This document shows positions 28,201-52,600 of a stretch of 64,000 nt of DNA, piece after piece. Origin of the DNA: Blasia pusilla (taxonomy: Eukaryota); assembly GCA_050084515.1 (NCBI GenBank), contig CM114271.1, forward strand, positions 2,170,001 through 2,234,000. Direction: 5' to 3'. The position numbers were made by a program, and so were the translations under genes. The notes under the pieces were generated by a model. It was given only the letters and a program-made list of their open reading frames with translations. It was not told where the DNA came from and made no database searches. Every line of letters starts with the position of its first letter. The stretch's first letter is position 1.

Positions 28201-31200
28201 ACTTTATAGTGAAGTATTTTATGTTTTATTCCATTATTTAGATTCCTGATTTTTTTAGGGTTTCTCATGTAGGTATTAGGGTCCCCTTTGTTGTCTTGCC
28301 TCGTTGTTATGTCATGAATGTTTCCAAGATAACTCATGTTGTTCTTCCACACCACCCCTTTTTCTCTATGTTCTTTCTTTATGGCCATGCATATTTCTCG
28401 CTCATGTTTGACCCATGTTCTTCTCCGTTATCCCAGCCTTAGGTAGACCTCTATTCCCATCCATTTTTCTTCGGTTTTTTCTATTCTCTTTCCACATTAT
28501 TAGTACCTCCATACTACCTCTAGTTTGTTTTGGGAGGGGGTTGGGCTAGAAGTCCTAGGTGAAGAATATAGATGAGAGTTCATACTAGGGGGAGCATTAC
28601 CTTGGATGAGAAGAGAGTCGATTACCATTAGTGCTAGTTTGAATGGGGGTTGTGGGGCGGATTCAGTGTGGGTTGTCTCTCGAGTTTGATAGAGGGGGTG
28701 ATGTTCTCTTCTTGGTGAGCGGTGTCCATGCCTCAAACCGCATCGGCCTCTCGTGTAGGGGCCCGTGGGTTGTCTAGTCGGGATAAAAAATTCCCTTGTT
28801 AACCTGAATTCTTCACCCGTTCAGGAATTCTGAGCCACTTAGCGGCTAAACATCCTCACTTTGATAGATTTGGATGGGTGGTTCCTCCAGTCGACCATGG
28901 ATGCTCACCGGTGCTTCATGCATCATCACCCCCTCCTGAGGTATGGGAGTGGTTGAGGTCCCACCTTGGCAGCATCATAGGCCTCTTTGAGACCTATTTT
29001 CCCTGCTCGAGGTTGTTTCATAGGATCCCCCATGCCATTCGAGACGAGCTCCGCCACGCTTTCCTCCTTCCCCTATCTAGGATTGCACTTGATCTTATGG
29101 ATTAGCTCTTGTGATATCTACTTCTCCTTCCACGATGGTGTCTTCGTTATAACCTGGGGGGGGGGGATTGGGAGTCTCTGCAGAGCGAGTTTGTGGCATA
29201 TGCCAGAGGCAGCACTTCACCTAGTTTCCCGACGGATGATCATATAGCATCTAGGTTGCGACAATGTAGACACTTCGACGAGTGGGGGAGTACTCGCGAG
29301 CGGCTCGTGTGCTCCGCCCTGTGGTCATGGCTCCTCCTTCCGCTGTTACCATTGATGCCCTCCGGAGGCTACATCCTCGTCTAGCGGTTGATATTCCAGT
29401 GTTTTTATGTGACTTCCATCCTGACACGGCTTTATGCCTAGATTCGTCCCTCTTTGCACGGAAACTCGGCATTCCCCTAGGATAGCAGCTAGAGGGTTGT
29501 CCAATATGATGTATGAACACCTTTGTGATTGCTTTCCCCCCGAGGACTCTGCTAGCGGATTTTCTGAGTTGCTTCAATTTGCCTCTCACCTAGCTTAGGG
29601 GAGAGTGCCAACAGCAGTGGCTCAGGTATTGGGAGCGGGGTGACTTTTGGCGCTGTCGAAGGAGGGTGGAGGGATCCGTCCCATCGCCATAGGTGAGGTG
29701 CTCTTACGGTTGGTGAGTCACACTATGACTTTGCAATTCCGTGAGGCTTTCTAATCACATCTGAGTCCGCACCAGTTCGGAGTTGCCATGCCAACTGGTT
29801 GTGAGGCCATAGCCTTAGGTTTGAGGGCTTGTCTGGATATCCATCTTGAGTGGGTGGTTCTCCAAGTTGATATGGAGAATGCCTTCAACTTAGTGTCTCG
29901 GGCAGCTATCTTCACGGAGTTGAGAGACGTAGGGGGTCCTATTGCAAGCTTGATTCCCTTTGTGCAGGCTTTCTATGGGGCTCCTTCACCCCTCTATTTT
30001 CACCACGGTAGGTCCGAGGAGGAGGTCATGGTTTTTGAGTCTGCTATCGGGACTCATCAGGGTGATCCCTTGGGTGGTGCATTGTTTGCTTTGGCTCATT
30101 ATCGAGCGGTTCTTTCTACGGTGGAGGCTTTCCCGTGTTGCATTTTCCCTTCGTTGGTAGATGATACTCACATTGTTGGCCTTGGAGACTAGGTCATTCT
30201 TGAATTTCATCACTTTTCACCACAGTTGGCACATGTCGGCCTCGCTGTGAAGGTGGGAAAGTGCAAGGCTTGGTCTCCATAAGGCCTGCCGGCTGATATA
30301 CATTTACCCGACGGATTCTCGACACCTGCTGGAGGGCTTCGCATCTTGGGAGTCCCACTCGGGAGCCAAAACTTTGTATCAAGTTTTGTGGCGGCGGCTC
30401 TTACCAAGGATCTTCTCCATGTCAAAGATCTCATGAGGATTGGTGACCCTCAAGTAGCTTATGGCATCCTGTCATCATGTTTCGCTCATAGACCTGGTTA
30501 TCTTTGTAGGACTGTGTGGGCGTCTAGCCATATTTCTTCCTTACATAGATCCTTTGATAGAAAGATCATGCAGGCGTTTGGGGATCTACTAGGACCTGGC
30601 TCCTTAGAGTGCTCCGTGGGGGAGTTAGGTCGTAGATAGGCTTCTTGGCCGGTTGCCTTTGGTGGAGTAGGTCTTATAGCGACTGAGTTAGTGGCATCTT
30701 CGGCTTTTTTAGGGTGGGCCATTGTAGCACCCCTCCTTTGCTCCCGATTTTTTTTTAGGGATAGACGGCTACTTTTACAATACATTTCCCAGGTTGAGGA
30801 TGGTCTTTTCCCACTTCAATCTTCACTCACAACTTATAGAGATTCCCTTCTTGTTGAGGCTAGAGCAGTTTTTCCCACTTTCTCTTCTCTAGTTATCTCC
30901 GAACAGTCTAGGCTCCAATCTTCTTTGATGGAAGCCCACTTTGAGGCAATGTTCAGAGCTATCCCCATGGAGATGGGAATATCCCCATGGAGATTCGGGC
31001 TCGTATTCGCTCTTGCTCCGAAAAGGGGGCAGGCTCATGGGTGGGGGCTTGCCCTCTCATCCCGGATTTCCGCATCGCACCACTTGCCTACACTACAACA
31101 ATGCAGTTCTGATTGGGCCTGCCCCAACCATCGGTGGTTGGTTTGACACATTACGAGTGTCAGCAAAGCCTGGATCCACTTGGTGTGCATTTGGCACGGT

Positions 31201-31542
31201 GTCCAGTTGGGGGTGAGAGGATAGCCACCCACGATGCAGTGCGGGATACTATGTTCTCTATTGCTCGGGAGGGTGGGTTCCATGTGCAAAGAGAGAGGCA
31301 CTACTCCATGCGGGATTCCCTTATCCATATTGATCTCTACATGACGCGGGAGTTTGAGATGGTGGTAGCGGATGTTGTAGTGATGGATCCTACGCAAGAG
31401 GAGGTGCGGGCCCAAGTGGTGGCACAAGGGAGATTGCTACAAGGAGCGGCGGCGGCGGTAAAGAAGACCCACATTTATAGTCGACTTTATGACGGACATC
31501 AATTTATCCCCCTAGCCATTGAGATATACGAGGCCATGAGGG

Positions 31543-32365
31543 CAAGGTTGCATGCAAACGGACAAGTCCGTCCGTGGGACAGACATGTCCAGACATGACC
31601 ACGGACATGGAACATCGGGCGCGAGCACGGGTTTTTGTGGCGCCAAGATTGACCGCACGGGCTCTACTTGCGGGCCATCGGTGCGGGCTCCGATGAAGGG
31701 TGTGGGCCAGGGTGCAAGCCTTAGTCTCAACGTGGGCTGTAAGCAAGCGCGATGTACGGGCCCTAAAGCCCGCGTCCAGGCTGCTTGCGGGCCTTGGAGC
31801 CTGCATGCACGCTAGGATGCGGGCCCTAAAGCCCGCATCCAGGCTACTTGCGAGCTAGGTCGAGGGATGCTAGCGGGCAACCAAGCCCGCGTGCGGGCTA
31901 GTTTGCAGGCCCTGAAGCCGGTGCGCGGGCTTGTTGCGGGCCGCCCAGCCCGCGAGAGTGCTTTTTGCGAGCCTGCATGCATGCTAGGGTGCGGGCCTTG
32001 AAGCCCACGTCCAGGCTGATTGCGGGCCTCTGAGCCCGCAAGCCGGCTGCTTGCGGGTTGCTTGCGGGCCTAGGAGCCGCATGCGGGCGCTAGGATGCAG
32101 GCCCTAAATCCCGGGCTAGTTGCGGGTCCTTGAGCCCGCGTAGAGCCTGCGCGCGGACTCTAAGGCCTAGGCGATCCATAGTGCGGGCTCTGTGCGGGCC
32201 CTGGAGCCTGCTTGGGGCTAGAATACGGGCTCGCTGGTGGACCATTGAGCCTGCGGATGGCCCGCACTACGCGCCTTGGAGCCCGCATGTGGGCTAGGGC
32301 ACGAGGCCACGCACGGGCTCCTTGCGGGTCGTGCGGGCCAGGATTATAGGCGGGTCCTGTCATTC
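31543..32365. repeat. GC-rich left subterminal region with many gcgggc/gcccgc motifs
   Basis: Dense (t)gcgggcc and agcccgc motifs, mirrored at the right end (~50270-50917). Consistent with hAT subterminal transposase-binding repeats. Confidence 0.75.
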
Positions 32366-33535
32366 AAGTGAGGTATTAAATAAATTCTATCATTATTATG
32401 GTTTGGGTGATTGACGGTTTGAGAGGTTGAAATAGGATTGTTGTAGGAGAATATAGGTTAGTTAGAAATGAGAGTAATTGATGAATTTGGGATCCTGGTG
32501 GTGAAGAAAGGAATGATAATATTAAAATAGATTTGAATAAGGTGGTTGTATTACAAAATAGGTATGTTGGAAATTGAAAGTTGGTCAAGAAGTTAGGATA
32601 GGTGTAACCATCCTTTGTTAGTCATAGTTAAGTTAGAGTCTATGACATGAAGCGCATAAGTGGGAAAGAAGCAACCAAAAAGAGAAAAGACAAGATACAT
32701 GAGATAAAGATGATAGTGGGGCCATAGGTTGGTGAAAAGGAAGATAAGGATGAGGTTGGGACATTAGACTCCAAAGGAGATCCTCTCATGCTATGAGAGT
32801 AGGACATGTGGCATAAGGATAGGTAGAGTTAATTTATCTTCATTGTACCTATCTCTAAGTACATAAAGGAAGAGGAGAGGCCTTAAGGGCATTCTACCTT
32901 TGAGCAACTCTAGAGTGGTTCCGTGAGCTGGAGAGTTACAATGGTATCAGAGCAAGGTTGCTCTTCTAACGAGAGTGGATTACCCCTCTTGGAAGGATGA
33001 CCAAGTAATGATATACTATTTAGAGTAGATAGGTTGTTAGAGGATGGGAGTGGCTATTGAGCTGCAAGTAGAGTAAGGGGGAAGGGCTGTGTTGCAAGTA
33101 ATGGATGGAGGGGGAGCAAGAGTGGCTCCTAATTTCCCGTTTCTTAATCCGTTCACCATCAAACTCTTATATGTAGATAGACACTAGTTCACGAGATACT
33201 TGGTATATCATTTTGGTGAAGTTTTCATGACGCAAGTGATGGAGTCTCATTATCGGGTGATCCTCCCTATTGTTACATATGATCGTGTGTGGGATTGCAC
33301 TATTTATATATTATTTTAGAGGAGATATGGGGAATGGATTTGAATAGGCCCCCACAAGTGTTTTTTAACACTCGATATATAGTCCATGTGTTTTGTCAAC
33401 CTAAGATAGCATATAGAGAGTTAATGGTGAGGAAGTTTGGCCAAGAGTATTATGATGAAGTCATTGCGTCAACATTGCCTTTTGTAGTCCCTATTGTGCG
33501 AAATTGGCAGGTGTATATCTTGATCTTATATTAGA

Positions 33536-36500
33536 GTGATAGTAAAGGGTGAGGGGAAAGTCAGAGCAATTATGGAAGAAACTTTGAGGAATATGATTCG
33601 TGAATTGAGAGAGTTGAGAGTTGCATTTGATCAAAGTCAAAACCAAGTCCAAGAATTAGTGCAAGAAGTTGCTTCGGTGAGAAATGTGAGAGTAGAGAGA
33701 GAGAGAGAGAGAGTTCTTCCGATAGGTGGGATGGAGATAGAAACCACGAGTGTCGTGACTTATGGGGAGAGTGACGAAACCTTAAGGGCACAAGCATTTG
33801 AGGCCCAAGCAGCACAAAGAGTGATGGAGATGAATGCTCAAGCATCATTGATATTGAAAATGAAAAAGGCATGCAAGGTAGAATTGTACTAAGGAAGTCA
33901 AGCCATGGGGGTATTAGAGGGTTGGATCACTCGGATGGAAATCCATTTATCCCTTTTCAACATTGATGATCATATTGCAAGGATGTTCATAAGATCTTGG
34001 TTAATCGATCGAGCATTGATATGGTATCAAGGATGGGAGAGATCCTTGATTGAAACAACTCAACAAATCACATGGAGCGGCTTCCTTCGTAAAATTCTAC
34101 AATTTGAGCTTATGAAGACAAAATTTCATGGTTATATGACCATATCTACCACACTCAAAACATTGGTGTATATCTCTTCAGACTTCGAATTCTCTCCCTC
34201 CTCTAGGAATCCCGACCCCGTCGGTTCGAGGAGCAATCCCTTGTATGTTGGGGTTTCGATCTCTCTCCATTGGCACCCTTTCATTATACCTTCGCGGCGC
34301 ATAACCATCTCGTGCTCGAAGGTTACCCAACTCCATGGGTGTGGATCCGTAGTGGTTGTTCATGGAAGCAACCACCTCTCCTCCTCCTTCGTACATATTT
34401 GCCATGCAAGGTGGAATTGTACGAAGGAAGTCAAGCCAAGGGCTGTTGCAAAATTTCCAAGCTATGGATCCAATCCTCACTGCTAGAATGAAATTATAGC
34501 GATTGGAGCAGAAAAGCACTGTGGAGGACTACATTGAAGAGTTTCGTGACTTGCAGATACAAATCCCCGACATGAGTGGGCCAAAAGCTCTCGATCTGTT
34601 TAAGAGAGGTTTAAAGAAGAAGGTGCATCAAGAGGTGATTCGAAATAACCCAAAAGATATCAATGAAGCAATCGCATGTGCCCAACGTATGGAAATATGT
34701 ACGAAGGAGGAGGAGAGGTGGTTGCTTCCACGAACAACCACTACGGATCCACACCCATGGAGTTGGGTAACCTTCGAGCACGAGATGGTTATGCGCCGCG
34801 AAGGTATAATGAAAGGGTGCCAATGGAGAGAGATCGGAACCCCAACATACAAGGGATTGCTCCTCGAACCGACGGGGTCGGGGTTCCTAGAGGAGGGAGA
34901 GAATTCGAAGTCCGAAGAGATACACACCAATATTTTGAGTATGGTAGATATGGTCATATAGCCATGAATTTTTGTCTTTGTAAGCTCAAAAATAGGCCAT
35001 ATTGTCGCCCCCTTAATCATCTTGACGGAGGACACATGCAGGAAGATGACGAAGAAGGCGGACCTTAGGGAAACGCCAACCACCAATAATCGCGCCTCGC
35101 GGATATACTGGTTCAAACAAAATGAGGAAAGGCGAGGGTCGACACAAACATGTGGAGGTAAATGGTTTGAAGAGAGGAGAAACACGTCTCATTGTTATAG
35201 ATGGGGAAGTAGAAGGATCTCAAGTTAGAGTGTTGATTGATCCTGGGGCAACAGAAAACTTCCTTTCAAAAGCCATAGCTATGAAATTGGGCTTAACTTT
35301 AGAGAGGGATCAAAAAGAAGAGGTACAATTACCAAACGGGCAAACAGAAAAGATTGAGAAGCTTCCTGGAAGGGTAGAGTTGAGGATAGGAAAATATCTG
35401 GAAGAGTTGGAGATGAAGGTCATTAGGTTAGCACGTTATGATATTATCTTGGGAATGCCTTGGATGGAACAGTATAATCCAGAGGTAGATTGGAGAAAAA
35501 AGATTATGAAGACCCGAGAGTGGAAGCTTTACGGAGATAGAGTCAGATCACGTCCTAGAACCCTACCCCTATATCTAATAGGAAAAACCGCCATCAAACA
35601 TCAAGATGTATATTTCCTAGATTTAATAAGAAATGTTTGTGGTTTGAAAAAATATTCAGAGGTACCAGACGAGTTGAGAGAAGTATTGGAGGAATACAAA
35701 GATGTATTCCCAAATGATTTACCATCAAGGTTACCATCCAAACGGAGGGTAGACCACAAGATTGAGGTCCTTCTAGAAAGCACACCATCATGTAAGGCTC
35801 TTTACCACTTAGCTCTAAGAGAATTAGAAGAATGCAAAGCCTAAGTGGATGAGATGTTGTAGAAAGGTTTCATCCAACCAAGCGTCTTGCCATATGGAGC
35901 CCCTGTCCTTTTTGAAAAAAGAAGAATGGAAGCATGCGACTGTGTATCGATTATCGAGCACTGAATCAACAAACAGTCATAAACAAATATCCATTACCAA
36001 GAATGGATGATTTGTTTGACCAGCTACAAGGAGCAAAATACTTCACTAAACTTGACCTTCGCAGCGGCTACAACCAAATTTGAATTGCAGATGAAGATGT
36101 GCACAAGACTGCTTTTTGTATTAGGTATGGACACTTTGAATACTTAGTCATGCCATTTGGTCTTACTAATGCACTTGCAATCTTTATGGGCCTAATGAAT
36201 GATATCTTTCGTCCATATTTAGACAAGGCTGTCATTTTATTCTTAGATGATATCTTAGTCTATAGTAAAATGATAGAGGAGCATATAAATCATCTACGAG
36301 AAGTCCTTCAAATCCTAAGAGATAATGAGTTGTATGGTAAAGCTTCAAAATGTGAGTTCGGTAAGACAGAAGTTGATTATCTAGGGCATCGAGTAAGCGC
36401 AGAAGGTATTGAAGTGATGAGTGAGAAGGTAGAAGCGATCCAAAAATGGAGTGCACCTGAGCATCAAACTCAATTGAAGAGTTTTCTATGATTAACAGGA

Positions 36501-38520
36501 TTCTATCAAAGATTTGTCAAAGGTTTTGCTCAAATTGCACAATCCTTAACAGCTTTACTACGTAAAGGACAAAAATGGAATTTGCGCACATCACAAGAGA
36601 TTGTTTTTCAATCATTAAAGGATGTCTTGATCAAAGCCCCTATTTTGAAGTGGTATGATCCTAATCGACCCATCAAGTTGGCCACATATGCTTCAGGTAC
36701 TAGCATTGGAGGAGTACTACAACAAGAATGGGAGGATGGATGACATCCTATTGCCTTCTTTTCTCGCAAGCTATTGCCAGCGGAGCAAAACTACCATACA
36801 ACTGAGCGAGAAGAACTTGCTATTGTGTTGGCAACCAAGCATTGGAAACATTACTTGGGCGATAAGGAGTTTGTAGTGGAGACTGATCACAAGCCCTTGG
36901 TCTACTTAGAGTCCAAAAAAGGAGCTTTCCAAAAGTCAAATTCGATGGGCAGAATGGCGACAAAAATTCATGATGAAAATTATCTATGTGGAAGGAAAGA
37001 AGCAATTGGCAGACGTCTTGACTCGTATACCACAGATGAATAACATATCTGAAGTGGAGATTCACTCTAGTTGGTGGAAAAAGTTATCCAAAGCCACAAA
37101 GGAGGATGAAGAAATTGCAGTTGCTATTCATGCCAACAGAGTATACAAGGTTCAAGGATTGGTTTTCCATGAAGGCAAAGTATGGATCCTACAAGATCCA
37201 CAATTACGCACTGAAGTATTGTCTGAAGCTCACGACACAATCATTCCGGGTCATATAGGAGCTGAAAAAACCTTAGAGGGATTACAACGGGCATACTATT
37301 GGCCCAAAATGAGAGAAGATGTTGACGTATATGTAAGGAGTTGTAGGATTTATCAACAAATCAAGGCTAGAAACACAAAAGCAGTAGGATTGTTACAACC
37401 GATCCCAATACCTCAAAAACGTTGGGAACAAGTCACTATGGATCTTGTTTGTGAGCTACCTTATACGATCACGGGATATGACTCTATTATGGTCTTTGTG
37501 GATAGATTAAGCAAGATGATACACCTTCGTCCGACCAAGAAGACTGTGACTGCACCAGAGTTGACTAGGATCTACATCAAGATAGTCTTTGTCCATCATG
37601 GTCTTCCTAAAGTGCTTATCATTGATAGGGGAACCCATTTCATGAGTTTATTTTGGAAGGATTTATTCGGATTGCTCCAAACTAAACTAGCCATGTCTAC
37701 GCGCTTATCACCCTCAAACTGATGGACAAACTGAAAGGGCCAACAGTATCATTGAGGATATGCTACGCACCTTAACGTTAGAGGATCAACAAGGATGGGA
37801 CTCGTTGTTATGCTTAGTAGACTTCTCATACAATAACTCCATGAACTCTTCCACTAAGACCACACCGTTCTTTTTAATGCATGGCGAGCATCCCTCAATT
37901 CCTTTTAGTCTCACTCGAATAGGGAAAAGTCTGAGGGAACCTACAAAGGTAGCTGCAGTTAATGAGTTTGTGGACCAGATTGAGAAAGGGTTTCAACTTG
38001 CTAAGGAGAAGTTGGCTATTGCCCAAAATCGACAAAAATAACATATAGATGCTCATCATCGAGATGTCGAGTTTTTTGAAGGGGACAAGGTTTGGTTAGC
38101 AACAACCAATTTATCATTAGTAGGAGTTCGTAAGCTTAATCCTCGCTATATTAGGCCTTTGACTATCCTACAAAAAGTAGGCGGCGTGGCGTATAAGCTA
38201 GACCCACCAATGCATATGAAAATCCATCCTATGTTTCATGTCTCTCTTCTTCGACCGTTTATTCCACGCCCTAAGAGATTTAAGGACAATATTGTCACTC
38301 CACCACTACCTTAAACAGTCGGAGATCATGAAGAATTTGAAGTGGAACGTATCTTGAAGAAATGCACTCAAGAAGCTCATCACCACCGAGTTGAATATTT
38401 GGTCCATTGGAAAGGATATCCACTATTTAAGGCCACATGGGAACCCTCAGCCAACTTGGCGAACGCACCATTAATAGTGCAAGAGTTTGAAAGTTCTCAC
38501 AACGAGGACGTTTTATTTTA
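33536..38520 (+). pseudogene. Gypsy gag-pol (PR-RT-RH-IN-chromodomain), degenerate
   Basis: [46 protein letters not shown]. Chromodomain FEVERIL...EYLVHWKGYP..ATWEPSANL at ~38330-38465. Confidence 0.93.
34103..34990. repeat. ~300-bp inverted duplication inside Gypsy gag
   Basis: 34103-34405 is the reverse complement of 34689-34990, with a spacer of ~283 bp. The ORF track shows the same peptides on opposite strands. Confidence 0.92.
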
Positions 38521-39078
38521 AATGGGGGGAGGTTTGTAACCATACTTTGTTAGTCATAGTTAAGTTAGAATTTATGATATGAAGCGCATAAGTGGAAAAG
38601 AATCAACCAAAAAGAGAAAAGACAAGATACATGAGATAAAGATGAGAGTGGGGCCATAGGTTGGTGAAAAGGAAGATAAAGATGAGATTGAGGAAGATGA
38701 GGTTGAGACATTAGACTCCAAAGGAGATTCTCTCATGCTATGAGAGTAGAACATGTGGCATAAGGATAGGTAGAGCTAATTTGTCTTCATTGTACCTATC
38801 TCTAAGTATATAAAGGAAGAGGAGAGGCCATGAAGGCATTCTACTTTTGAGCAACTCTAGAGTGGTTCCGTCAGCTGGAGAGTTACAATAGGTCAAGAAG
38901 GAATCTAATAGAAGAATAAAAGTAGGTTTAATGAAGAAAATTAATGGAGATGGTTTAGTAATCAATTGTAAGTGGGGATAGATGATTTGTGGAGTTAGAA
39001 GGGATCATTTTCTTCCTTCCATCCTCCCCTAGATAAACTTGCTCATTTTTTTATACCCTCACAATCTCATTCCTCCCT

Positions 39079-39123
<45 letters not shown>

Positions 39124-39393
39124 CGTTTTTTTCCATAGATAGTTGAACTTGATAAGTGAGAATATGTTTTGCCATTAGATAACCATGATACTAAAAGTAT
39201 TTTGGTTATCTAGGTTAGCATATTGATCTTTCTTGTTCATAGTGAGTGTTCCAAGTTTTGTTATTGGAGCATTCATGGACAATATTTGGTGTAATTTGCA
39301 TACAATTTAATGATCGATATATACTAAAATTGACAGTAAATTGTTGCAAATTTTCCAAATATTGTTGGGTGGGGTTAGTGAGTGCCTCTAGTC

Positions 39394-41843
39394 ATGACCA
39401 AAGCCAGAGAACTCCAACAGATTATGAAGGAATATTCGGAAGAAGTACAGATGGAAGGTGGAACATCAAACAGATGGCAGTGCAAGTATTGTTCATATTC
39501 TATGAAAACCTATCATAGCACACGGATGGTGGAACATTTTACACAAGAGAGACAAAAGACAAAGGATGGGAATAAGGATACCCATCATGCCAAATTATGT
39601 GTGAAGGTCCCTCCCAACGTGCAACGAGATCTTCGAAACAGGGTACTAGTGGAAAATGGACAAAGAAGGGAAGCAAGACCTTCGAAAAAAGTGGAAGAGA
39701 CGACTCCATTACAAATAGGTTTGCAACAAACAAGAAATAGTGTTTATGTTGTACAAAATATTGATGGGGTTGCAGACATGCCACCAAGTGTCAGTCTCGA
39801 GGAATGCATAGGAGTTGTTGGGCCCATTCGAGGGAGTAGTAGTTCTGGGAAGAAACAAGCCGATCTGAGGGATTCTTTCAACATCCAAGGAATAGAAGTT
39901 GCAAATGACATGTGGGCGAAGTGTTTCTATGAATTTGGAATACCATTCAACGTAGTACGGTAGGATGCTTTCAAAGAAGCAGTGTTGGAAACAACAAAGG
40001 TGAAGGGTTACTCACGTCCCAATTATAATTCGTTGCGCACCACCCTACTTGAGAAACATATGGGGAAGGTGAAGGAAAAGGTGGATGGCATATTGGACAA
40101 TTTGCGTTTGGGGGCCACGATCATAACGCATTCTTGGACCAATGTGAGAAGCGAGTCTTTAGTGAATATAATGGTCTCTTGTCCACAAGGTGAGGTCATG
40201 ATTAAGTCGATAGACACCAAAGGAGAATCCCAAATGGCGGAATGGTTGGCAAGTCACATAGAGAGGACTATCATGCGAATCGGTCCAGAGAATGTGTTGC
40301 AACTTGTGACAGACAATGCTAGCAATGAGCGAGCAGTAGGGAAACTACCGAAGCAAAGTTCCCTCATATTCTTTGGGATGGATGCGTATCACATTGTCTT
40401 GATCTAGTCTGCGAAGAGTGGGATAAATGGCCTTGGGTGGACATGATTTTTGCACAAGATCGTGAGATGGTAGTATTTGTGAAGACTAGAACTTGGGTGA
40501 TGGCCAAATTTATGGAAACCAATCCAATGAAGAGACGATTGTTGCTTCCTGCAAATACACGCTTTGCAACAAATTTTATCATGTTGGGACGCGTCTTAGA
40601 ATTTAGGGAGGCGTTCTACGCCACGGTTGCTACCAATGCTTTTAGGGAGTATTTCAATGGCAAGGATGCAAGGCAAAGGGAGAAGGCACGAGAGATTGAG
40701 ACTACTGTGGCCAATCACGGTTTTTGGATGGAGGGTGAGGAGTTGTTTGCTGCGGCTCAACCAACAACTATTCTGTTGAGAGAGTGTGATGGTCATAAAG
40801 CAATGACTGGGCGTATTTATCGCCGTATTTTTTAGATAATGGAAGAGACTTGTTCTTTTCTTGTGACTCCATGGCCGGGTGTGGGCGGAAGGCGTCACGG
40901 TTATTTTATCACAATATCTAGAGCTATAGAGATGGTCGATGTTATTTCTAGGCGGTGGGCACTTATCCACAACAAGTTACATGCACTAGGCTATATTCTC
41001 GACCCTTACAATCTTCTTGATGATGTTCAAGACATCACTTCAAATGCTGAGCGCATGAGAGATTTCAAACAATATCTGAAACTGTATGCAATGGGGGTGC
41101 ATGGCCTCAATGTCACCCAGGCTAATTATTATGTGGCAACTTGCTTGCGAGAGTTGGGCAACATTGTGAACCATAAGGAAATATTTGTGGATGAATTTGG
41201 TAGGGAAGTTGTTGATTCACTATGTCCCTCTGATTGGTGGAGCATGCACGATCAAGGTGCACCAACATTGCGCTCTGTGGCTAAGTCCATATTAGCACAA
41301 GTGGTTTCATCTTCTTCAGCGGAGAGGAATTGGAGTAGTTATGGTTTCATCCACAACAAACAGAGGAATAAATTGACCAACGAGCGTGCCAAGGATTTGG
41401 CTTATATCTATACAAACTCAAGGTTTGGAGACAAGGGTGTTTCTCAGAAATCAAGACAAGTGCTCTTGTACGAGCAATAATTTTCAGAAAGGGATGGACA
41501 AGAACAAGCTAGAAGGGTAGTAGAAGATGGCAGTGAATCTAGCTTGCATGCAAGAAACAATGATGGTAATCATGAAGACAACCTTGACTTGCAAGATGAG
41601 GATCTAGAGGAGATGGATGTGATATGTGGAATTCATGGCATCAAAGGGAGAGAGGATACTCATATCGGCAATACTGAAAATTTTGATTCCGAGGGGCTTG
41701 GAAGAGATGAAAATGATGTTGAAATGGAACATTGGATTCGAGAGCACAAAGAAGAGCAACAACGGAGGACTTCAAGCAAATCCAATCTTCCCATCACTTC
41801 TCCTAACACAACCTACCACTCAGAATTATTCCATCGAGTCTAG
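39394..41843 (+). pseudogene. hAT transposase (BED finger, DUF659-like core, dimerisation domain)
   Basis: WQCKYC..H (BED-like); FGIPFN; ITHSWT (first catalytic D apparently lost); VTDNA; CVSH; TRFAT; WW..APTL..ILAQVVSSSSAERNWS..IHNKQRNKL. In-frame stops at 39961, 40833 and 41478, plus a frameshift at ~40350. Confidence 0.92.
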
Positions 41844-42249
41844 TGAACCTATGCGGGATACTCCACCACAATCTTTGAGCGCTGAAACGGTGGACTTAGT
41901 TGATGAGCCTAATGATAATGATGTTCTCATATCGATGGTTCCAAACTCTCAACCCATCAATCATGGCATGGATAGTTTATGTATTTCCTCCGATGTGAAA
42001 CAACTACAATAAGAGCTCGTCGTCGATCCACCCGCCTTTGAACTATTGAGCCGCCAAATTACCGCTTACATCTTAATCCACTGGACCCAACCATAGACCT
42101 AGAGTAGAAGAGTAATTACAAAATTTAGTGAGACGGATTAATAGACAGTTGTAGCAAACTTGTTTTGTGATGACTATTGTAACAATGTCATTTTTATGAC
42201 AATCCTTTTTATATACTTCTCCTTAATAAAGCGTTTATTTTTACATTGA

Positions 42250-44960
42250 GGTGAAATTGGTAAGCGTCATTTTTGAGCTCATGGTCACCACTCCAATTTG
42301 CTCAAAACTTTGCAAGAGTGCTACAAACACAAGTTGGGAGAGTTGGGCATGATGAAAAATGAAAAAACCTTATTTCCATTCAAGGTTTAGTGGTTCGGGG
42401 CCAAAAGTACTTACATATTTTTGAGGTTTTCCTCACAAATTTCTTTTGGTTAAAACTTGGAAAAAGTGGAACATGCATCTTAGAAACCATGTCAAAAAAC
42501 TTTTAGCTCAAGATGAGAAAGTAAGACAAGGTGAAAAATGAAAAAACCTTATTTTGATAGAAGGTCTGATGGTTCGGGTCCAAAAAGGAGTTAGAAATTT
42601 TTGAGCTTTTGCTCACAACTCCATTTTTCCTCAAACTTGGCAAGAGTGGTAGACTCACCTTGGGGACCTTGTTGGCCCAATTTCAGCTCAAGATGAAGAA
42701 ATTGGACAAGATGAAAAATGAAAAAACCTTATTTTGATAGAAGGTCTCATGTTTGGGTCCAAAAAGGAGTTAGTAATTTTTTAGATTTTTCACACAACTC
42801 CATTTTGACTAAAACTTGGCTAGAGTGTATTATGCACCCTGGGGACCACGTGGGCTAAATTTTAGCTCAATATGACAAAGTTGAACAATATGAAAAAATC
42901 TTATTTTGGTAGAAGGTTTGATGGTTCAGGTCCAAAAAAGAGTTAGAAATTTTTGAGCTTTTTCTCACCACTCCATTTTTCCTAAAACTTGGCAAGCGTG
43001 CTAGGGTAACCTTGGGGACCATGTTGGCCAAATTTCAGCTCAAGATGACAAAGCTGGACAAGATGAAAAATGGAAAAGCCTTATTTTGGTAGAAGGTCTA
43101 ATGGTTCGGGTCCAAAAAAGGAGTTAGAAATTTTTGGGCTTTTGCTCAAAACTTAATTTTGCCTAAAACTTGGTAAGAGTGCTAGGGCCACCTTGGGGAT
43201 CATTTTGGCCAAATTTCAGTTCAAGATAAAAAGTTGGACAAGATGAAAATTGGAAAACCCTTATTTTGATAGAAGGTCTGATGGTTCAGGTCCAAAAAGG
43301 AGTTAGAAATTTTTGAGGTTTTGCTAACAACTTGATTTTGCCTAAAACTTAGCAAGAGTTCTAGATGCACCTTTGGGACCAATATGGCCAAATTGCAGTT
43401 CAAGATGATAAAGTTGGACAAGATGAAAAATGAAAAAACCTTATTTTGATAGAAGGTCTGATGGTTCGGGTCCAAAAAGGACTTGCCAAATTTTGAGCTA
43501 GTGGTCCCAACTCCATTTTGCTTGAAAATTGGCGAGACTACTAGATGAACCTTGGAGACCATGTGGGATAAATTTCACCTCAAGTTGAAAAAGGTGGACA
43601 AGATGAAAAATCATAAGACTTTCTTTTCATTCAAGGTTTAATGGTTTGGGTCCAAAAAGAAGTTCGTACTTTTTGAGCATTTGCTCACAAATTTGTTTTG
43701 CGTGAAACTTGGTGAGAGTTCTAGATGCATCTTGGGGACCATGTTGGCCAAATTTCAGCTCAAGATGACAAAGTTGGACAAGATGAAAAAATGAAAAAAC
43801 CTTATTTTGATAGAAGGGCTGATGGTTCGGGTCCAAAAAGGAGTAAGTAAGTTTTGAGCATTTTCTCACAACTCCATTTTTTGTGAAACTTTGCAAGAGT
43901 GCTAGATGCATCTTGAAGACCATGTTGGCCAAATTTCAACTGAAGATGACAAAGTTGGACAAGATGAAAAATGAAAAAACCTTATTTGAGTAGTAGGTTT
44001 GATGGTTGGGGTCCAAAAAGGAGTTAGAACTTTTTGAGCTTTTTCTCACAACCTCATTTTTTTTTGGGGAGCATGTTGGCCAAATTTCAGCTCCAGATGA
44101 CAAATTTGGACTAGATGAAAAATGAAAAAATCTTATTTTGATAGAAGGTCTGATGGTTCGGGTCCGAAAAGGACTTGCCAAATTTTGAGCTTGTAGTCTT
44201 AACTCCATCTTGCTTGAAAATTGGCAAGACTGCTAGATGCACCTTGGAGACCACGTGGACCAAATTTTACTTCAAGTTGAGAAAGGTGGAGAAGGTGAAA
44301 AATCATAAGACCTTATTTTCATTTAAAGTTTAATGGTTCGGGTCCCAAAAGGAGTGAGTAATTTTTGAGCTTTTTCTCATAACTTTTTTTTTCCTGAAAC
44401 TTGGCAAGAGTGCTAGATGCACCTTGGGGACCATATTGGCCAAATTGCAGCTCAAGATGACAAAGTTGGACAAGATGAAAAATAAAAAAACCTTATTTTG
44501 GTAAAAGGTGTGATGGTTCGGGTCCAAAAATGAGTTAGTAATTTTTGGGTTTTTTTTCACAACTCCATTTTGCATGAAACTTTACTAGATTTTAACATGC
44601 ACCTTTGGGAACACGTGGGATAATTTCTGTTCAAAATGCGAATGTTGGACAAGATTAAAAATGAAAAAAACCCTATTTTGATAGAAGGTCTGATGGTTCG
44701 AGTCCAAAATGGACTTGCCGCTTTTTGGGCTTGTGGTCCCAACTCCATTTTGCTTTAAAATTGGCAAGACTGCTAGTTGCACCTTAGAGATAACGTGGGC
44801 TAAATTTTAGCTCAAGATGGAAACGTTGGACAAGATGTCTGGTTAAAGACCTTTTTTTTTGCATTCAAGATTATCTGCTTCGGGTCCAAAAGGTCATTTT
44901 AAACTTAATTTGGGATGAGACTTTGCGAGAGTGATAGATGTTACTTGGGGACCATATGCA
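42250..44960. repeat. ~180-bp tandem array (~15 units) inside the hAT
   Basis: The anchor aaaccttattttgatagaaggtctgatggttcgggtccaaaaagg recurs at ~42364, 42545, 42724, 42900, 43078, 43258, 43438, 43618, 43798, 43978, 44130 (shortened unit), 44310, 44490, 44670 and 44848. Confidence 0.96.
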
Positions 44961-45746
44961 CTTTTCTATAGAATGTTAGAAGAGTTATTACATTTCACTC
45001 TTATAAATAATTACACTCTTGCAATCTAATGTAAATGATATCCTACTTCCTAGAGTAAATCCATCATTCCATAAAATTCAAACCAAATCTATTCATTCTC
45101 CATTTAAATTCAATTTCCCTTTCCATTACATATGAATCAAGGCACCTCTAAATTTATTTATCTAACATTTTCAAATCTAGAAAATTTTAGTAATATTTTT
45201 ATTCACCTATTATAATATTAAATAAAAATGAATTAATACGTAAATGTGGTTTTCTATTCCACCCAAGTCCCTTTCAAATTCTACCCCATGCAATATTGGT
45301 CAAAGGGATCAAATTCATACATTATTTTCCCTTAAAATTCAATTCAAACATATATTTTCCTTTATTAATTTTGGAAAAAAATTCATCCCTTTTCCAATCT
45401 CCATCTTTCAATAAATAAAAGAAAATCGCTTATTTTTATGAAATAGTAATTTTTTGGAATTAGTAATAAAAAAATGTAAAAGTATATCAAATAAATCATT
45501 CAATTATGGTATCTTCCACCTTATCCAAGGATTTATAACCCAAGATAACAATTTCATCCATTTCATGAACTCACTTCATGGACAACATTCGTGATCGTCT
45601 CACATTCACAAGTTTTCTTAGTGGAATATTATGATTTTTTTTGAAAATGTTTTACAACAAATGAGGAGTATCCCACAAAAAACCTGGATTGAGAGGAACC
45701 TAATACTTATGTACATTACAAAGATATAAATATCAACTCATTCTCT

Positions 45747-48114
45747 CTAATTTGATTCATCGTCCGATATATGTAACATCGGTGCTGACGTCTCACCATT
45801 TCTTCCTTCTCTTCCCCTAGCTCTAGTCACGCGCATCCCACCTCCACGAGGAATAGTCCTTTCCAACTCAACATCAGCTTCACCATCATCAGTTTCTTGT
45901 GTTGGCTGTGTCGGAAATATCTCCCACTCTCTCTCGAAGAATCCAAACAGTTCCTTGTGCATTCGACGAGGGTAATAGTATGTTCGAGGATATCCGCCTT
46001 CAGTCCTTTAAGGAATATCTTGCCATAAGAAAGGTAGCAAGATCAATTCGAGTCTCCTCAAAACAAGCTCATCCATCGATGGATTTTGATGATGGTTTAG
46101 CACAAGTTGTCGAGTTGTGTTGAGGGCGTCTCGAACTTCTTGTAAATTCAACCCTTGAGCAAAGAAGAAGTTTTCCGCCTCTCGATTTTGGATATCAATG
46201 GCTGTTTCGTAGATGAGCTCTCCTCGATCGTACATGTCAATGAAGTTGACCAACCACGCTCGCATTTCCCGATCAATCCTCCGTTGGCGAGGGATTTCCG
46301 CTTCAACCACCCGTCTATAACCCGAGTCTTCGGGGTTATAGTTCGATTGGGGGCTACGATGTCCCAAACTATGAACTTTTCTTGCTCTTGGGTTAATTTG
46401 TGATAAGTGGGTGGTGCATTGCCATCAAGAGCGCGGAAAGATATGTTGAAAAGGTGATAGAGTCTTCTTGACCAAGCTTGTCTACAATTTGGCCACTTGT
46501 GAGACAGTTGCCTTTTGAAGACAATATGGATGCCAATAACAAGCTTTACATGTGCCTGTCATGTAGCAACATTCTGCAACAATGGGGTTGAAGCAGATCA
46601 TGCATTTGGGCCAATTGTTTGGCGTGAGGGCCCCTCCTTCACATACTGCGATTGCCTTCATCCAATCCGGAAGATCTTGCACTTGTGTGTTCGGATTAAG
46701 AGGTGTTGGTGCCAGCATCATAGAGGCATAGTTCGCAGCGTTTGGATCTACGACATTATCCCATGCTACGCATAGAGCTGGAGGCCACAACTGCTCGATA
46801 GGTTGAAATAAGATCATATCAACCTCCTTCACGAGATGACCCTCAAGAAGGTTGTCTTTGGGTTGAGTTCTCCCACGTTACCTCTTGCTCTCCATCGCAA
46901 TAATTCATCCATCTCTTGCTGTCGTCTTGCCATGATGTTCTCATATGCTCTCCTCCACTGCTTTGTGTGGTCAACCATTACATCTCTTTGCCTTCTATGG
47001 AGGTCATCTCTTGCAAGAGATTCGTTCAAAGCCTGTCCATCTCTTTCTTCAATTGATGTGCTCCTCAGATAGCTGTTCATACTTGCCCTTCAAAACGTTG
47101 AATTCCACGGCAAAATCAAAATTGTGTTGGGAATTTATTATTTAACTCTCCAATTGTGATAGACGAGACATTACCTCGCTTTTCTCCAGAGCACTCTCCC
47201 CGCAAAAGGTTTGGGGAGGAGCACCGCTATGTATAGGGCGATCAGAACTCTCCTCGGGCTCATCAAAGCTCGTACTACGACCTACATAGAGGTAATTCAA
47301 ACCACCTCGTCTATCCTCCGCCCCCATCTGTACTCACCCTTCATCTCTACTCTCGTCTTGTATATATTCTTCAACACGACTATTTCTTCTTTGACCATCC
47401 AAGGAAGATAGTATGGCTCTAAGGCTCCTTGACAATCCACCTTGCTGATAATGGTGTGACGACGCTCGTGGTGATGAAGCTTCCACTCTTGCTCATTTAA
47501 AGTGTTGCCGTGGGGTTATACTGTCTTCTTCTCTTGGTCTCTTATCTCTTCTCGAAGACCCCTCATCCACATCACCATACTGGACCTCCATATCTTTCAT
47601 CAACTCCGCAACTTTGAGCTGAACAAATACCTTGCTCACTTACTTCATCTTTCTCTTGGGAAGGTCTTCGTACTTTCGGACGCCATTGAATTCAATCTTT
47701 TCATCCTCTTCCACATGGGACCTCCATATCTTTCATCAACTCCGCAACTTTGAGCTGAACAAATACCTTGCTCACTTACTTCATCTTTCTCTTGGGAAGG
47801 TCTTCGTACTTTCGGACGCCATTGAATAAAGCCCAATCCTTTGTCCAGTCATCCTCTTCCACTTTCCTTGCAAATTCTCCAATTGCACGCTCCGGCCACT
47901 TCAGCCGCGACTTCTTGAACTCTCCTTTCAAAACTTGTGGGTCAATGGTGCTATCCAAGTGTGCCTTCAATTCATCTTCCCTGACAAATTGCGATACCAT
48001 CTTCTTGTTCACCTTTTGAGGGATCTTTGGTGTCGGTGTATCTAGGGAATCTTCCCCTCTTCCGTCGTCCTGATTGTCGTGAGGGCTATGGTCTTCATGA
48101 GGCGGCAACTCCAT
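45747..48114 (-). pseudogene. hAT cargo gene 2: charged/coiled-coil protein with a RING-like Cys/His finger (~740 aa if repaired)
   Basis: Consecutive minus-strand ORF pieces run from MELPPHED to ...HISDDESN*. The finger CMIC-x14-CKACYWHPYC continues after a frameshift as (W)PNC. Stops, frameshifts and an internal 109-bp duplication disrupt it. Confidence 0.6.
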
Positions 48115-48308
48115 CTTGTCTTTTACCAAAATACAAAAAGAAAGGTGATTTAGAAATGATTCCAAGAATAGTGATACGATGGCACACGATACATCCACAC
48201 ATCAATCAAGATTCATTATTTGCAAAATTTCATAGTAACACATTCATCTTTTTGAACCAAGTCTTCCATTTCTCATGAAAAATATCCAATCCTCAAACGG
48301 GTTTACAA

Positions 48309-49690
48309 TCATACTACCAATGTTATTGGCCTTAATCCCGAATCTACATCGTCTACACCTAATACTTTCGTATTTGCTCTAATATATGCAATAAGAAACT
48401 CTAAGATTTTGCGATCAGAGGGATTCGGAGCTAATGCCCACTTTCGAATCCTTTCCAAATAAGTAAATCTCACCTTCGCTTGGGCATTCCCGATAGAGAG
48501 ATTGTATGTCACATAGTTCAAATTCTTCACAATCATTCCTAGGGCATAGATTTCAGTGGCCATGCTAAAAGGGAGATTCTGAGGCCCTGTTGTCAACTCC
48601 GGTGCTATATGCCCAACATGATTTTTTTGTTCCTGCTGCCACCATCCATGAGGAGACTCTAAGACTTCATCAGTCCACATGGCATTCCCCCAATCTCCAA
48701 CGCCGATGTATGGGCTAGAGTTGGATCCAAAATGGATGAACATGTTTCTAGCATGGAGGTCGGTATAAAAAACCCCACGCTTGTGGGCAGTCTCCATGGT
48801 TCCAAGAAGGGAAACCACAAGCTGGACGACATTTGATGCTATTGCAAGACATCTCATCTTTTCCAACTCTCCTAGATTACCCCTGCCGTTCTTCAAGTTA
48901 TGGCATGCTTGCAACTAATTTTTGAGGTGTCCACCATTCCAATATGGAAAAATGGCACGTGGTGGATCCTCGATCAACCTTCCCACCATGCAAACAACAT
49001 GGCGATGTAAAATACTAGCAAACAACTCTCTCGCATCATCGATTTTCTAGATCCTGATAGAGATGATTCCTTATACACCTTCATGCAATAGTACATTTCT
49101 TCCCTAAAGCCATGGGTTCCGTTTATTTTACAACGGTACACGATTCCATGTAAATCGGTTCCCACAATATCGCTCGGGTCATGTCCTATTACTACATTCT
49201 TATCACAAATGAAAGTTATTGCACATGGAACGGTCAATGTCAACCCCAGAGAAGTACTTCGTCCCTTGAAAGGACGTTGAGCACTTCTTAACTCTATACA
49301 GAATCTTTCTAGGAGAGCTGACTCTGCAGCATTCTGCTTCTCATCCTTATATGTCTTGGGATTGACATATGCTCTCTCTAGGTTAACACCTTGTTGGGCT
49401 CAAAATTTTGTCAATGTATCAGCCTCTGCGACATCCACTTCCCAGTCAAATGCCTTTGCCACTCTATTGGACAATCTCTGCAACTCCAAGGTGTAGTCAT
49501 GTAAACCATCCATACCCCTCAAAATATAGGATCGTCTCTTCTCTAAAGAAAGCTGGAAAAACCAGTCTAACCTTGCCTCTCTTACGACCATGTTGAAATC
49601 ATTCCTCAGAGTTGCTCTTTGCCTCTTGGCACCAACGTTGGACTCATTTCGGTTCTCTCCCGCTCTCGATGACCCAGCCCCACTAGACAT
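48309..49690 (-). pseudogene. hAT cargo gene 1: atypical eukaryotic-type protein kinase (~460 aa if repaired)
   Basis: Subdomains in order: IVGTDLHGIVY, CMKVYK, MMRE, LHRHVV, FPYWNGGHL, FYTDLHARN, VGDWG, HIAPE, TEIYALG, PSDR. Lesions: TGA at 49400, a frameshift at ~49020 and TAG at ~48915. Confidence 0.85.
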
Positions 49691-52600
49691 TTTCCTCGGA
49701 TGAAGAAGATAATATCTTAAAAAATACAAGGGAGAGAAATGGACGGGTTGAGATAAGAAAATACCGAAAAGAGAATGACGTGAGATGCTAAAAAAATGGC
49801 TCGGAATGTACTAGCGCGTGAATGATGGAAGTCTAGGGTTGGGCTCTCAAAGGGAATAGGTAGATATGGGCGTGTTTAGACAAGGTTTCTTGATCACCTC
49901 CACATCCTCGATGTGCTAAGGAGAACCAATGGAACAAGTAAAAAAAAACTCGGGTCTATGAATCGGAAATCTCAAAATCACCAAGCAAGTTTAGTGAAAT
50001 AAGATATTTCCACACTCACAAACATTCACCTAATGTGGAGTCGATTGGAGTTTATTTTAGATGCAACAAGGATCGCAAATATCCAAGTTGGTCCCAAATA
50101 AAATCCAAGTACTCCCAAAAGGCACCCAAGGGATTTCTCCAAAATTCCTAATAACCTTGAAAGCCCTTAGCTCTCAAGGCATCATAAAAATTTGGAGCCT
50201 AATCCAAAATATGACTAAAAAACTGGATAAATAGGGAAAATAAGGGTTAATTACCTAATCAACTCTTAAACACCCCCCCCATATGTACATTTTTGGGGCC
50301 CCTTGTGGGCCCTTCCCTTATGGGTTTTACCCCAAAGGGAAAAAAGGGGGAAGGGGAGGGGAGGGAATTGGGGCCAAGTTCAAACTTGGCCCCAGCCACT
50401 CCCAGGCATGCGGGCGGGGGCTCACGGCCCCACATGCGAGCAAGGGAGGGCTCGCGAGCCCAGGGGGCGGATGTCGCGCGCCACAAAGCCCCTGCGCGGG
50501 ATGTACAGCGGGCCCGTGGGGGGGCTCCAGGGGGTGGGGTGGGGTGGGAGTCCATGAGTGGGCCCGCCATAGCCCGCATGTGAGCTCGAGGGGGGGGGGG
50601 CTTGCAGGCAGGAGGGAGGCTCGCGGGCTCCATCGCGGGCCACAAAGCCCGTCGCGCGGGATGTACGCGGGCCCTAGAGCCCGCATGAGGGCGAGGCCTA
50701 AAGCGACGAATTAGAGGGTGCGACGCAACCCAATTTTTCCGCGACGCGGGTCAGACAGAAATATAGGGGCCGAGCATGATGCGCATTGGCCAGGAAAGGG
50801 CGGATTGCTCGATATGCATAGGCCTGGGTAAGGGCAACGCGGGCTCATGGAGCCCGCACCCGGGCCCGCACGGACATGTCCGTCCTCGGGACGGACATAT
50901 GTACGCGTGCAACCTTGCATGAGGGAGAGGTTTGACTCGTTCCTTACGGATTGCGCCCATCATTTCCAGTCGAGAAATGGATTGTCCTTAGCCACTGCGA
51001 TACTTGAATGTAGGCAACGGGTCTCCATAGCTTTGCAGCGTGCCCAGGAAAATGGGCTTTTGCGGCGGGCTCAGGCGGTTGGAGACGCCAATGCTAGAGG
51101 CCCACTTAGTAGTAGCCATAATTCTATTTGTGTTGCTGATATTGCCTCTGCTGTTGGTGATTTTGGTCGTTAGACAGGAGGCCCCCTTTTTTCTCTTCTC
51201 TGCGGGTTTATTGGCTCTCTATGGCCCCCTTCCTTTGTATCCCGATGGGTTTTCCATCTCGGTTTCTATTAAAGTGTATAATCGTCTCACTAGTAACTTT
51301 ATCCCCGCCACTTCGCTAACTCATCCCCATACCACTAACTCATCCCCGTACTTTGGGGGATAAAAGCCTAAAATCCTCTCTATCAAGCTGTGCCATTTAA
51401 AACCTTCTTTATTTACTGATTAAAAAACACCCCTAAAAGCTCTTCAATAATTCTCCCCGTAATAAAGTCGGCGAATGGGCCGAAGTCAAAATATGTATGA
51501 ATGTCAGGGCATCCGGTCTCTCTGGAGAATGGACTTAATGGACTTCGGGGAACTTGTCAGTGGAGTAATGCTCAGTAATCTACTTCCGATCCCGTTTAAT
51601 GAGCGCGGACAAAGATCCCGTAGATGACAGGTTCAACGCAAAGTCAACACAGGCGAGCAGTAAATAAAGAAGAGAGCTCCCGTGGGAACTGGGGGACTCA
51701 GGCCCTCAGGGAACTCAGGGAGTCAGGGATTCAAGGGAAGTGCCGGTTTCCCGAAAAGTGTCGCGCCACGTTATGGCGGTAGTCGCTGCTGCTCCCCTCC
51801 CCACCTCCTCGTCGCCAGACGTCCTCCCCACGAGCGCGAGGGTCCCGGGGAGGGGAAACCGAGAGAGAGAGAGAGCGAGCGAGCGAGCGCATGGCATGCG
51901 ATTGCTCGGTTCCGCGTCGGGTTCGGATTGGCTGCGAGCTCCCGCACGCACGCGCGCGCGCACAGTCGCTACGGGATTCTGCTTGCCAGCGACCAGAGCT
52001 GGCGAGCGACTTGAAGTCTCGACTCTTGAAGGTGAAGGATATTGAAGCCCTCCAACTCTTTCCGTTTTTTTTTTTTTTTCCCCAGCGAACGGCAACACAA
52101 TCAATGCTGCGCATGGGAGACGAGGATGGATGATGGATCGATCCGTTGGAACTCGCAAGAGCTGATAGGATAGGATCCGAGATTCGGAGGAGGATGGGCT
52201 AGCGGGCGTCAGATGATTTCGAAGTTGGCAGCAGCGGCGGCAACAGCAACAGACGACATTCGACCCGCAAGAGGAAAGGAAGAAGTGACCCACGCCTCTA
52301 GTTTTTCACGGGCGTGGCGATGGTGGGCGGAGTCGGTTCGCGGCGGATAGCTTCGTAATGAATGAATGAATCGTGCCATTGTAGAAGCCGTGATTTTCCA
52401 GCCATCGCCAGCTCCTGTGGGGCCAACCATCGGCTTTACCCGTTTCGAGCATCGCGTCTAATAAGAAAGAAAGAAAGCCCCCCAGTGATGATTCGGGGGT
52501 TTCCCCGCGTGCGCGACGCTCTTCCCATCCCGTCGCGCAACCGCAGACATCGGCGAATAGTTGGGTTCTTTTTTGGTTTTTTGTTGTTTCTAGTAGGGGC

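Follow-up and report, generated by a model that had tools for sequence, protein, structure and literature searches.

A decayed hAT transposon with a protein-kinase gene, a Cys-rich open reading frame and an internal repeat array in Blasia pusilla

Introduction

Plant hAT transposons of the Ac/Ds, Tam3, and Tag1 type are a few kb long and carry one gene, and genes besides the transposase are found in DNA transposons of other superfamilies, namely MuDR (mudrA/mudrB), CACTA (TnpA/TnpD), and VANDAL (VANA/B/C). In MuDR, two transcription units are read inward from the ends. In VANDAL elements, VANC-type proteins bind repeat motifs of their own element and bring about a loss of DNA methylation. Such accessory genes (MURB, TnpA, VANC) are among the few handles on the dealings of transposons with host control, and we know of no kinase among the accessory proteins of MuDR, CACTA, or VANDAL. 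Here, we describe a hAT unit located in a window of 64,000 nucleotides of Blasia pusilla (GenBank assembly GCA_050084515.1, contig CM114271.1, positions 2,170,001 to 2,234,000 of the forward strand), to which all coordinates below refer. The unit occupies 31543..50917 (19,375 bp), starts and finishes with inverted repeats that match perfectly over 10 bp, is flanked by an 8-bp target duplication, and holds, besides a transposase gene, a protein-kinase gene, a second Cys-rich open reading frame (ORF) here called ORF2, an array of ~180-bp repeats, and a nested long terminal repeat (LTR) retrotransposon. The reading toward which we lean, as the likelier account of the locus, is that the unit represents an old, inactivated copy of a high-copy, ~13-kb, three-gene hAT family in which the kinase gene and ORF2 are accessory genes of the family and not an accident private to this copy.

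The preliminary description of this locus started from the premise that hATs encode only a transposase, which is too strong, since the available parts of two reports present cargo-bearing hATs (PMC2528002; PMC6418002). The pandoravirus hAT transposons S0, S1, and S2 measure 7–10 kb and have 7–11 genes besides the transposase; they reside in giant-virus genomes in few copies with variable orphan cargo, among which the available part of the report lists no kinase (PMC6418002). In grapevine, the hAT element Hatvine-6, together with the KAONASHI/ULP-carrying Mutator-like elements (MULEs) and CACTA elements, amplifies host-derived coding sequence, the ULP domain recurs in transposons, and the cargo of Hatvine-6 varies, often being found in a single copy only, as far as the available part of that report goes (PMC2528002). 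The unit described here differs from the pandoravirus elements in its plant-like host, its hundreds of copies, and its seemingly fixed cargo, and from Hatvine-6 in a cargo that is sequenced as deeply as the transposase and in a kinase gene without a close host-type relative.

Compared with the single-gene plant elements, the unit shares with Ac/Ds, Tam3, and Tag1 the 8-bp duplication, the short terminal inverted repeat (TIR), the subterminal repeats, and a transposase with a dimerisation domain, whereas its size of ~13 kb, its two further genes, its internal array, and a transposase ~29% identical to the best relatives set it apart. MuDR, CACTA, and VANDAL are, as here, DNA transposons with non-transposase genes, although they belong to superfamilies other than hAT, and the MuDR-like arrangement of two units read inward from both ends is a likeness in layout only. 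A literature search, in which supplements were not covered, found no hAT element with a kinase. The element is probably a new variant of accessory-gene-bearing DNA transposon, that is, an unusual but not unprecedented multi-gene transposon.

Insertion of the Unit as One Piece into a Host Retroelement

The left end of the unit carries the TIR CAAGGTTGCA (31543..31552, plus strand), the exact reverse complement of which closes the right end (50908..50917, minus strand). Directly outside these repeats lie the two copies of the target-site duplication (TSD) CATGAGGG, at 31535..31542 on the left, where the sequence and an empty-site joint with 8 shared letters define it, and at 50918..50925 on the right. 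The TIR starts are of the YARNG type, a motif known for the TIRs of hAT elements, and the perfect match over 10 bp and the 8-bp TSD are likewise as in the hAT superfamily. The terminal ~50 nt of the left and right ends can also be aligned with each other and have the motifs GTCCGTCC and GGACATGTCC in common. Within the window, five 10-mers with at most one mismatch from the TIR were found against 4.56 expected by chance, and because such near matches are no rarer than chance, the TIR alone is little proof and the case rests on its context.

This context is provided by the target, a G+C-rich host retroelement that is present three times in the window. The hAT unit lies inside the last ORF of copy A (28528..31542 and 50926-51276, plus strand), whereas copy B (13217-16660, minus strand) and the 5'-truncated copy C (52925-54908, plus strand) are uninterrupted. 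When the hAT is removed and the flanks of copy A are joined, the host reading frame runs through, and both uninterrupted paralogues are colinear to the base across the insertion site, where each has the target octamer once, there in the form TATGGGGG. In the whole-genome shotgun (WGS) run X11 (~2,000 million letters, with reads placed at 85% likeness), 107 reads (58 + 49, from 75 start places) join position 31535 to 50919, with 8 letters fitting either side; these empty-site reads derive from the numerous other host-retroelement copies without the insertion. The unit was thus inserted as one piece into the host retroelement, between the boundaries given above. No second copy of the hAT element was found within the window.

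The frame, the paralogues, and the empty-site reads accordingly uphold the TIRs, the exact 8-bp TSD, and the one-piece insertion claimed in the preliminary description. Its placement of the insertion in a CRE ORF holds in that reading resumes across the joined flanks, while the assignment to the CRE clade was not confirmed, the sole match of the host element being a weak one to RVT_1 (26 bits, below the cut-off of 29.6). Without the nested LTR element the unit measures 13,083 bp (19,375 − 6,292), in agreement with the ~13.1 kb previously given, and its layout is as described there, with a G+C-rich end, the transposase on the plus strand, the array, two minus-strand genes, and a second G+C-rich end.

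Transposase Gene, G+C-Rich Ends, and 180-bp Array

The transposase gene (39395..41480, plus strand) comprises a DUF659 region (89.1 bits) and the hAT C-terminal dimerisation domain (PF05699, 42.2 bits against a cut-off of 21.4). Its best relatives, to which it is ~29% identical, carry PF04937 and PF05699 and align with it colinearly, without introns and with one frameshift near 40348. Since the transposase contains in-frame stops in addition to this frameshift, the copy at hand is not autonomous. The 8-bp duplication, the TIR, and the dimerisation domain together place the unit in the hAT superfamily. For an N-terminal BED-type zinc finger, no Pfam match was obtained over 39382-39963 at E values up to 5, and a CxxC...HxxxxH pattern is visible (WQCKYCSY...HSTRMVEH). 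One Logan contig (run X1) joins 39592 to 42026, with 29 letters on its shorter side; tentatively, such a joint would be that of a Ds-like derivative from which most of the transposase has been deleted.

Both ends of the unit are rich in G+C and share a sequence motif. The left subterminal region (31543..32400, G+C 0.64) contains 23 hexamers of the type GCCCGC/GCGGGC as well as degenerate 31-35-nt repeats, and the right one (50251..50917, G+C 0.65) contains 11 copies of the same hexamer, so that 34 of the 40 occurrences in the entire window fall within these two regions. Because the hexamer is common to both subterminal regions and the terminal ~50 nt can be aligned, the two ends are those of a single element. 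By analogy with the subterminal repeats of Ac, the left region is presumed to be a putative transposase-binding and promoter region; the right region is presumed to hold a putative promoter for the kinase gene and ORF2.

Between the convergent transcription units lies a non-coding array (42266..44960) of ~15 units of ~180 bp, the units being 60-100% alike, which matches the ~180-bp, 15-fold array reported before. The GCCCGC motif that marks the ends was not found in this array. The notion of the preliminary description that the cargo might manipulate host silencing, possibly targeted through the array, is speculative. The possibility of a coding repeat was considered and rejected, as the minus frames contain 38–41 stops compared with ~48 for the best frame of shuffled sequences.

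A Divergent Kinase Gene and Its Family

The protein-kinase gene (48309..49689, minus strand) is intronless and comprises ~460 codons. It is broken three times in this copy, by a TGA at 49400-49402, a frameshift near 49020, and a TAG near 48915, through the last of which its relatives align. The longest open piece scored 30.1 bits with the Pkinase profile (PF00069), against a cut-off of 31.7, whereas a profile of nine relatives produced 135.8 bits over the C-lobe of the window gene, together with 8.9 bits over the N-lobe in another frame. The catalytic motifs YCMKV, YTDLHARN, GDWG, and IAPE, corresponding to the VAIK Lys, HxD...N, DxG, and APE of kinases, are kept in the window gene; in this copy, the glycine loop (GTDLHG) has degenerated. 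The Atlas also places the kinase piece among kinases.

A HMMER search against 1.84 billion representatives yielded 23 proteins at E ≤ 0.001, the best of which was 34% identical. About 12 of these 23 form one family that has in common WNGG, HxDLHxxN, DWG, APE, and a C-terminal GLRP motif, and whose full-length members comprise 443-473 amino acids (aa), compared with the ~460 codons here. All seven relatives that were scanned exceeded the Pkinase cut-off (41–65 bits). The named relatives belong to the liverwort Riccia fluitans (one, KAL2609948.1) and the fern Adiantum nelumboides (five, among them MCO5566894.1, MCO5554107.1, MCO5546586.1, and MCO5580937.1), the remainder coming from short contigs, and the presence of five relatives in one fern fits a multi-copy kinase gene. 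A word-based protein search with the kinase piece among longer proteins had found no relative, which was a miss of the method, as HMMER then recovered the relatives of 443-473 aa. A metagenome scan with a four-sequence kinase alignment gave three loci, of which the sole one inspected (L002) showed prokaryote-like dense genes, an unrelated kinase, and no hAT; in a scan of viral contigs, no member of the kinase family was found.

One relative is predicted to fold as a kinase (pLDDT 82), and the nearest solved relatives are the TK/TKL kinases B-Raf, FGFR2, JAK1, and c-KIT (profile E ~1e-20; Foldseek E ~1e-11, TM score 0.6–0.7 on the target). The catalytic D, N, DxG, and APE are shared with TK/TKL kinases, but the identity to these is only 14-20%, and the family is distinguished by WNGG, by DWG in place of DFG, by GLRP, and by a ~120-aa N-terminal helical domain. 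This domain, confidently predicted over residues 1-120 of the relatives P0002, P0005, P0015, and P0026, has no Pfam match; a putative role in substrate choice or DNA binding could be envisaged. Judged by its relatives and by the score of 135.8 bits, the gene appears to be a true member of a rare, divergent, conserved kinase family, which upholds the kinase call of the earlier account.

ORF2, a Cys-Rich Orphan

The second cargo gene, ORF2 (45747..48114, minus strand), runs through several frames in this copy and includes a Cys-rich stretch at 46482-46877. This stretch (CMIC...CC...CKAC..H..C) matched zf-RING_2 over profile positions 2-34 of 44 with 11.8 bits (E 0.32, cut-off 27.3), and the last Cys pair of the RING motif is missing in frame. 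Folding the Cys-rich ORF from its sequence alone gave a model of too low quality for use (pLDDT 42.7). For the same ORF, a word-based search among longer proteins returned no relatives, Atlas scores reached only 0.76, and PDB sequence searches with ORF2 pieces gave nothing below E 0.4. Because the RING profile stayed below its cut-off and neither relatives nor a confident fold nor a PDB match could be obtained, the RING-like gene or ubiquitin ligase of the preliminary description was not sustained, and ORF2 is best called a Cys-rich orphan.

At position 47777, all 69 of 69 WGS reads have another letter, which turns the ORF2 stop at 47776-47778 into a sense codon; the stop is therefore private to this copy, and this suggests that ORF2 is a gene of the hAT family. 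We weighed an intron beginning at GTAAGT behind the first ORF2 exon but discarded it, since the stop in that place is private to this copy according to the reads. A 136-bp tandem duplication (47575-47827), the copies of which are 97–100% alike, shifts the ORF2 frame.

Copy Number, Transcription, and the Case for a Proposed Three-Gene Family

Depth in the WGS run was 109–149 over the transposase bins and 86–116 over the bins of ORF2 and the kinase gene, compared with 32–42 over the array and 26 and 43 over the G+C-rich ends. The nested LTR element had a depth of 73–163, with 120–160 in 8 of its 10 bins. Only 58 of the 16,662 placed reads are at least 99% alike to the window, which sets the depth of a single copy at no more than ~0.4x, so that every part of the unit exists in hundreds of copies. 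Relative to this copy, most of the others show 5-15% divergence, predominantly through C>T and G>A changes. All parts of the unit are thus multi-copy, and the present copy is decayed, with its three genes broken. Coverage of the coding parts is about three times that of the array and the G+C-rich ends, in keeping with a better conservation of all three genes between copies, and the similar depth of transposase and cargo, above that of the non-coding parts, fits a constrained three-gene family. As evidence of linkage between cargo and transposase, equal depth is weak, because the unrelated nested LTR element is similarly deep.

Raw reads of two stranded RNA runs were placed on the window as well. 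Over 47900-49891, the first mate had a depth of 1.0–2.7 on the plus strand versus 0–0.44 on the other strand, whereas RNA of the plus-strand LTR element showed the opposite bias, with the first mate mainly on the minus strand. The cargo RNA is therefore the sense strand of the minus-strand genes, and this weak signal stems from diverged copies.

According to the three-gene reading favored here, the transposase would be read inward from the left G+C-rich end, and the divergent TK/TKL-like kinase gene, followed by the orphan Cys-rich ORF2, would be read inward from the right one, the non-coding 180-bp array sitting where the two transcription units would converge. The transposase would move the whole unit by cut-and-paste, generating the 8-bp duplication, as is established for hAT biology. 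The kinase and ORF2 may then act in trans on the life cycle of the element itself, most likely through phosphorylation of the transposase or of a host chromatin, repair, or silencing protein, which would liken the cargo to the second genes of MuDR, CACTA, and VANDAL in role and not in sequence. The multi-gene hAT family put forward in the preliminary description stands insofar as transposase and cargo are highly repeated in the genome; the arrangement of both between the same ends in other copies, as well as any function of the cargo, is what we infer.

Several observations weigh against this reading. The linkage of cargo, transposase, and ends was seen in this copy only, and the nearness of the LTR depth to the depth of transposase and cargo means that their equality could be a coincidence. 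The G+C-rich ends are shallower than the interior, which could also reflect a higher copy number of interior parts than of ends. Moreover, all three genes are broken here, ORF2 has no relative in any searched set, the RNA is very shallow considering that the family has hundreds of copies, and the transposase is almost silent, with a depth of 0–2.9 and no clear strand.

The broken cargo genes, the very low RNA depth, and the want of a recognizable family for ORF2 would also be expected if the cargo consisted of passengers, that is, of one or two host genes captured ancestrally by Pack-MULE-like transduplication or by readthrough and then amplified as hitchhikers useless to the element. Capture of host sequence by a hAT has been described for Hatvine-6 in grapevine, in the available part of the report (PMC2528002). 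However, the kinase gene spans the full length typical of its family, has an upstream region of its own, and is not a fragment, and a recent capture of an ordinary host kinase is unlikely given that no close host-type kinase occurs among the 1.84 billion representatives. The coding parts of the cargo are, in addition, as deep as the transposase and about three times deeper than the non-coding parts. We consider this explanation rather unlikely.

The depth profile bears on a further alternative, in which the kinase/ORF2 block, with or without the array, would be a separate repeat, Helitron-like or poor in termini, residing inside the hAT, and the layout would be restricted to this locus or a small subfamily. 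Depth indeed drops to 32–69 on both sides of the block (41924-45907 and 49892-50555), and nesting is common here, the hAT being host to an LTR element and itself lying within a retroelement. The preliminary description had allowed for a nested kinase/RING block with its own termini, but around 44800-50400 no TIR, LTR, direct or inverted repeat, or flanking duplication bracketing the cargo was found, and the block is directly followed by the right hAT end, in which the hexamer motif of the left end recurs. Among the six best piles of loose read ends from run X11 (the weakest with 59 reads; 3,038 further entries exist for all four runs combined), none lies inside 39–50.5 kb, a weak argument in the same direction. 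Taken together, a separate repeat seems improbable. An assembly chimera of unrelated repeats is very improbable indeed: all parts are repeats, only 58 reads are at least 99% alike, and no long piece spanning the stretch is among those listed, but the unit is bordered on both sides by an exact TSD and TIR set in the host element's reading frame, and both flanks agree with the paralogues to the base, a result that a mis-join would not yield.

Should the three-gene family be real, its meaning would extend beyond this locus. To our knowledge, none of the known accessory genes of DNA transposons is a kinase, and a hAT that keeps one through hundreds of copies would offer a testable case of phosphorylation of the element itself or of its host. 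A source would also be found for a kinase family of bryophytes and ferns that is otherwise an orphan. If the cargo were instead a passenger, the locus would still illustrate clearly how elements nest in three layers and how a hAT can amplify whole genes. A bolder proposal, which we regard as doubtful, is that a hAT lineage in spore-bearing land plants has retained its own kinase, together with a partner that binds zinc, as fixed accessory genes, the two-promoter layout resembling that of MuDR. In that case, the WNGG/GLRP family would be ancient, transposon-borne throughout, and engaged in modifying the transposase or host chromatin and silencing proteins.

Nested LTR Retrotransposon and Remaining Features of the Window

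The nested LTR retrotransposon (32603..38889, plus strand) is delimited by LTRs at 32603-32942 and 38535-38889, which differ by 19 mismatches and one 15-nt gap, by TG..CA ends, and by a 5-bp ATAGG duplication at 32598-32602 and 38890-38894. Its domains follow the order protease, reverse transcriptase, integrase (PR-RT-INT), which is that of Gypsy (Ty3) elements and identifies it as such. A form without this element is represented by 14 WGS reads and one contig that join 32597 to 38888, and other hAT copies therefore lack the nested element. In the RNA read depth, the nested element appears strongly transcribed.

Several internal features of the LTR element were also recorded. It contains a 298-nt inverted repeat that is 96% complementary (34103-34400 and 34693-34990). 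Most genomic and RNA reads skip 34080-34437 and have 7 other letters instead (42 WGS reads; 152 and 106 RNA reads), which therefore indicates a private rearrangement or insertion in the gag region of this LTR copy. In the reverse transcriptase region, a stretch of 563 bases with GT..AT ends (36124-36688) is skipped by 76 and 45 RNA reads and by only one WGS read; the gap may reflect splicing or a deletion in transcripts of the family.

The three copies of the G+C-rich host retroelement within 64 kb differ in their mutual likeness, copies B and C being 94% alike and copy A ~82% like both, and copy C starts ~1.6 kb past the end of copy A. The ORFs of this element other than the one matching RVT_1 gave no Pfam match, and PDB sequence searches returned nothing below E 0.4. 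The family is strongly transcribed and very abundant (WGS depth ~270). Elsewhere in the window, a Copia-type reverse transcriptase/integrase lies at 23099-24844, and the only gene of ordinary host type recognized there is an ORF of 546 codons on the minus strand (56907-58547) that encodes a glycosyltransferase family 92 domain (98.1 bits).

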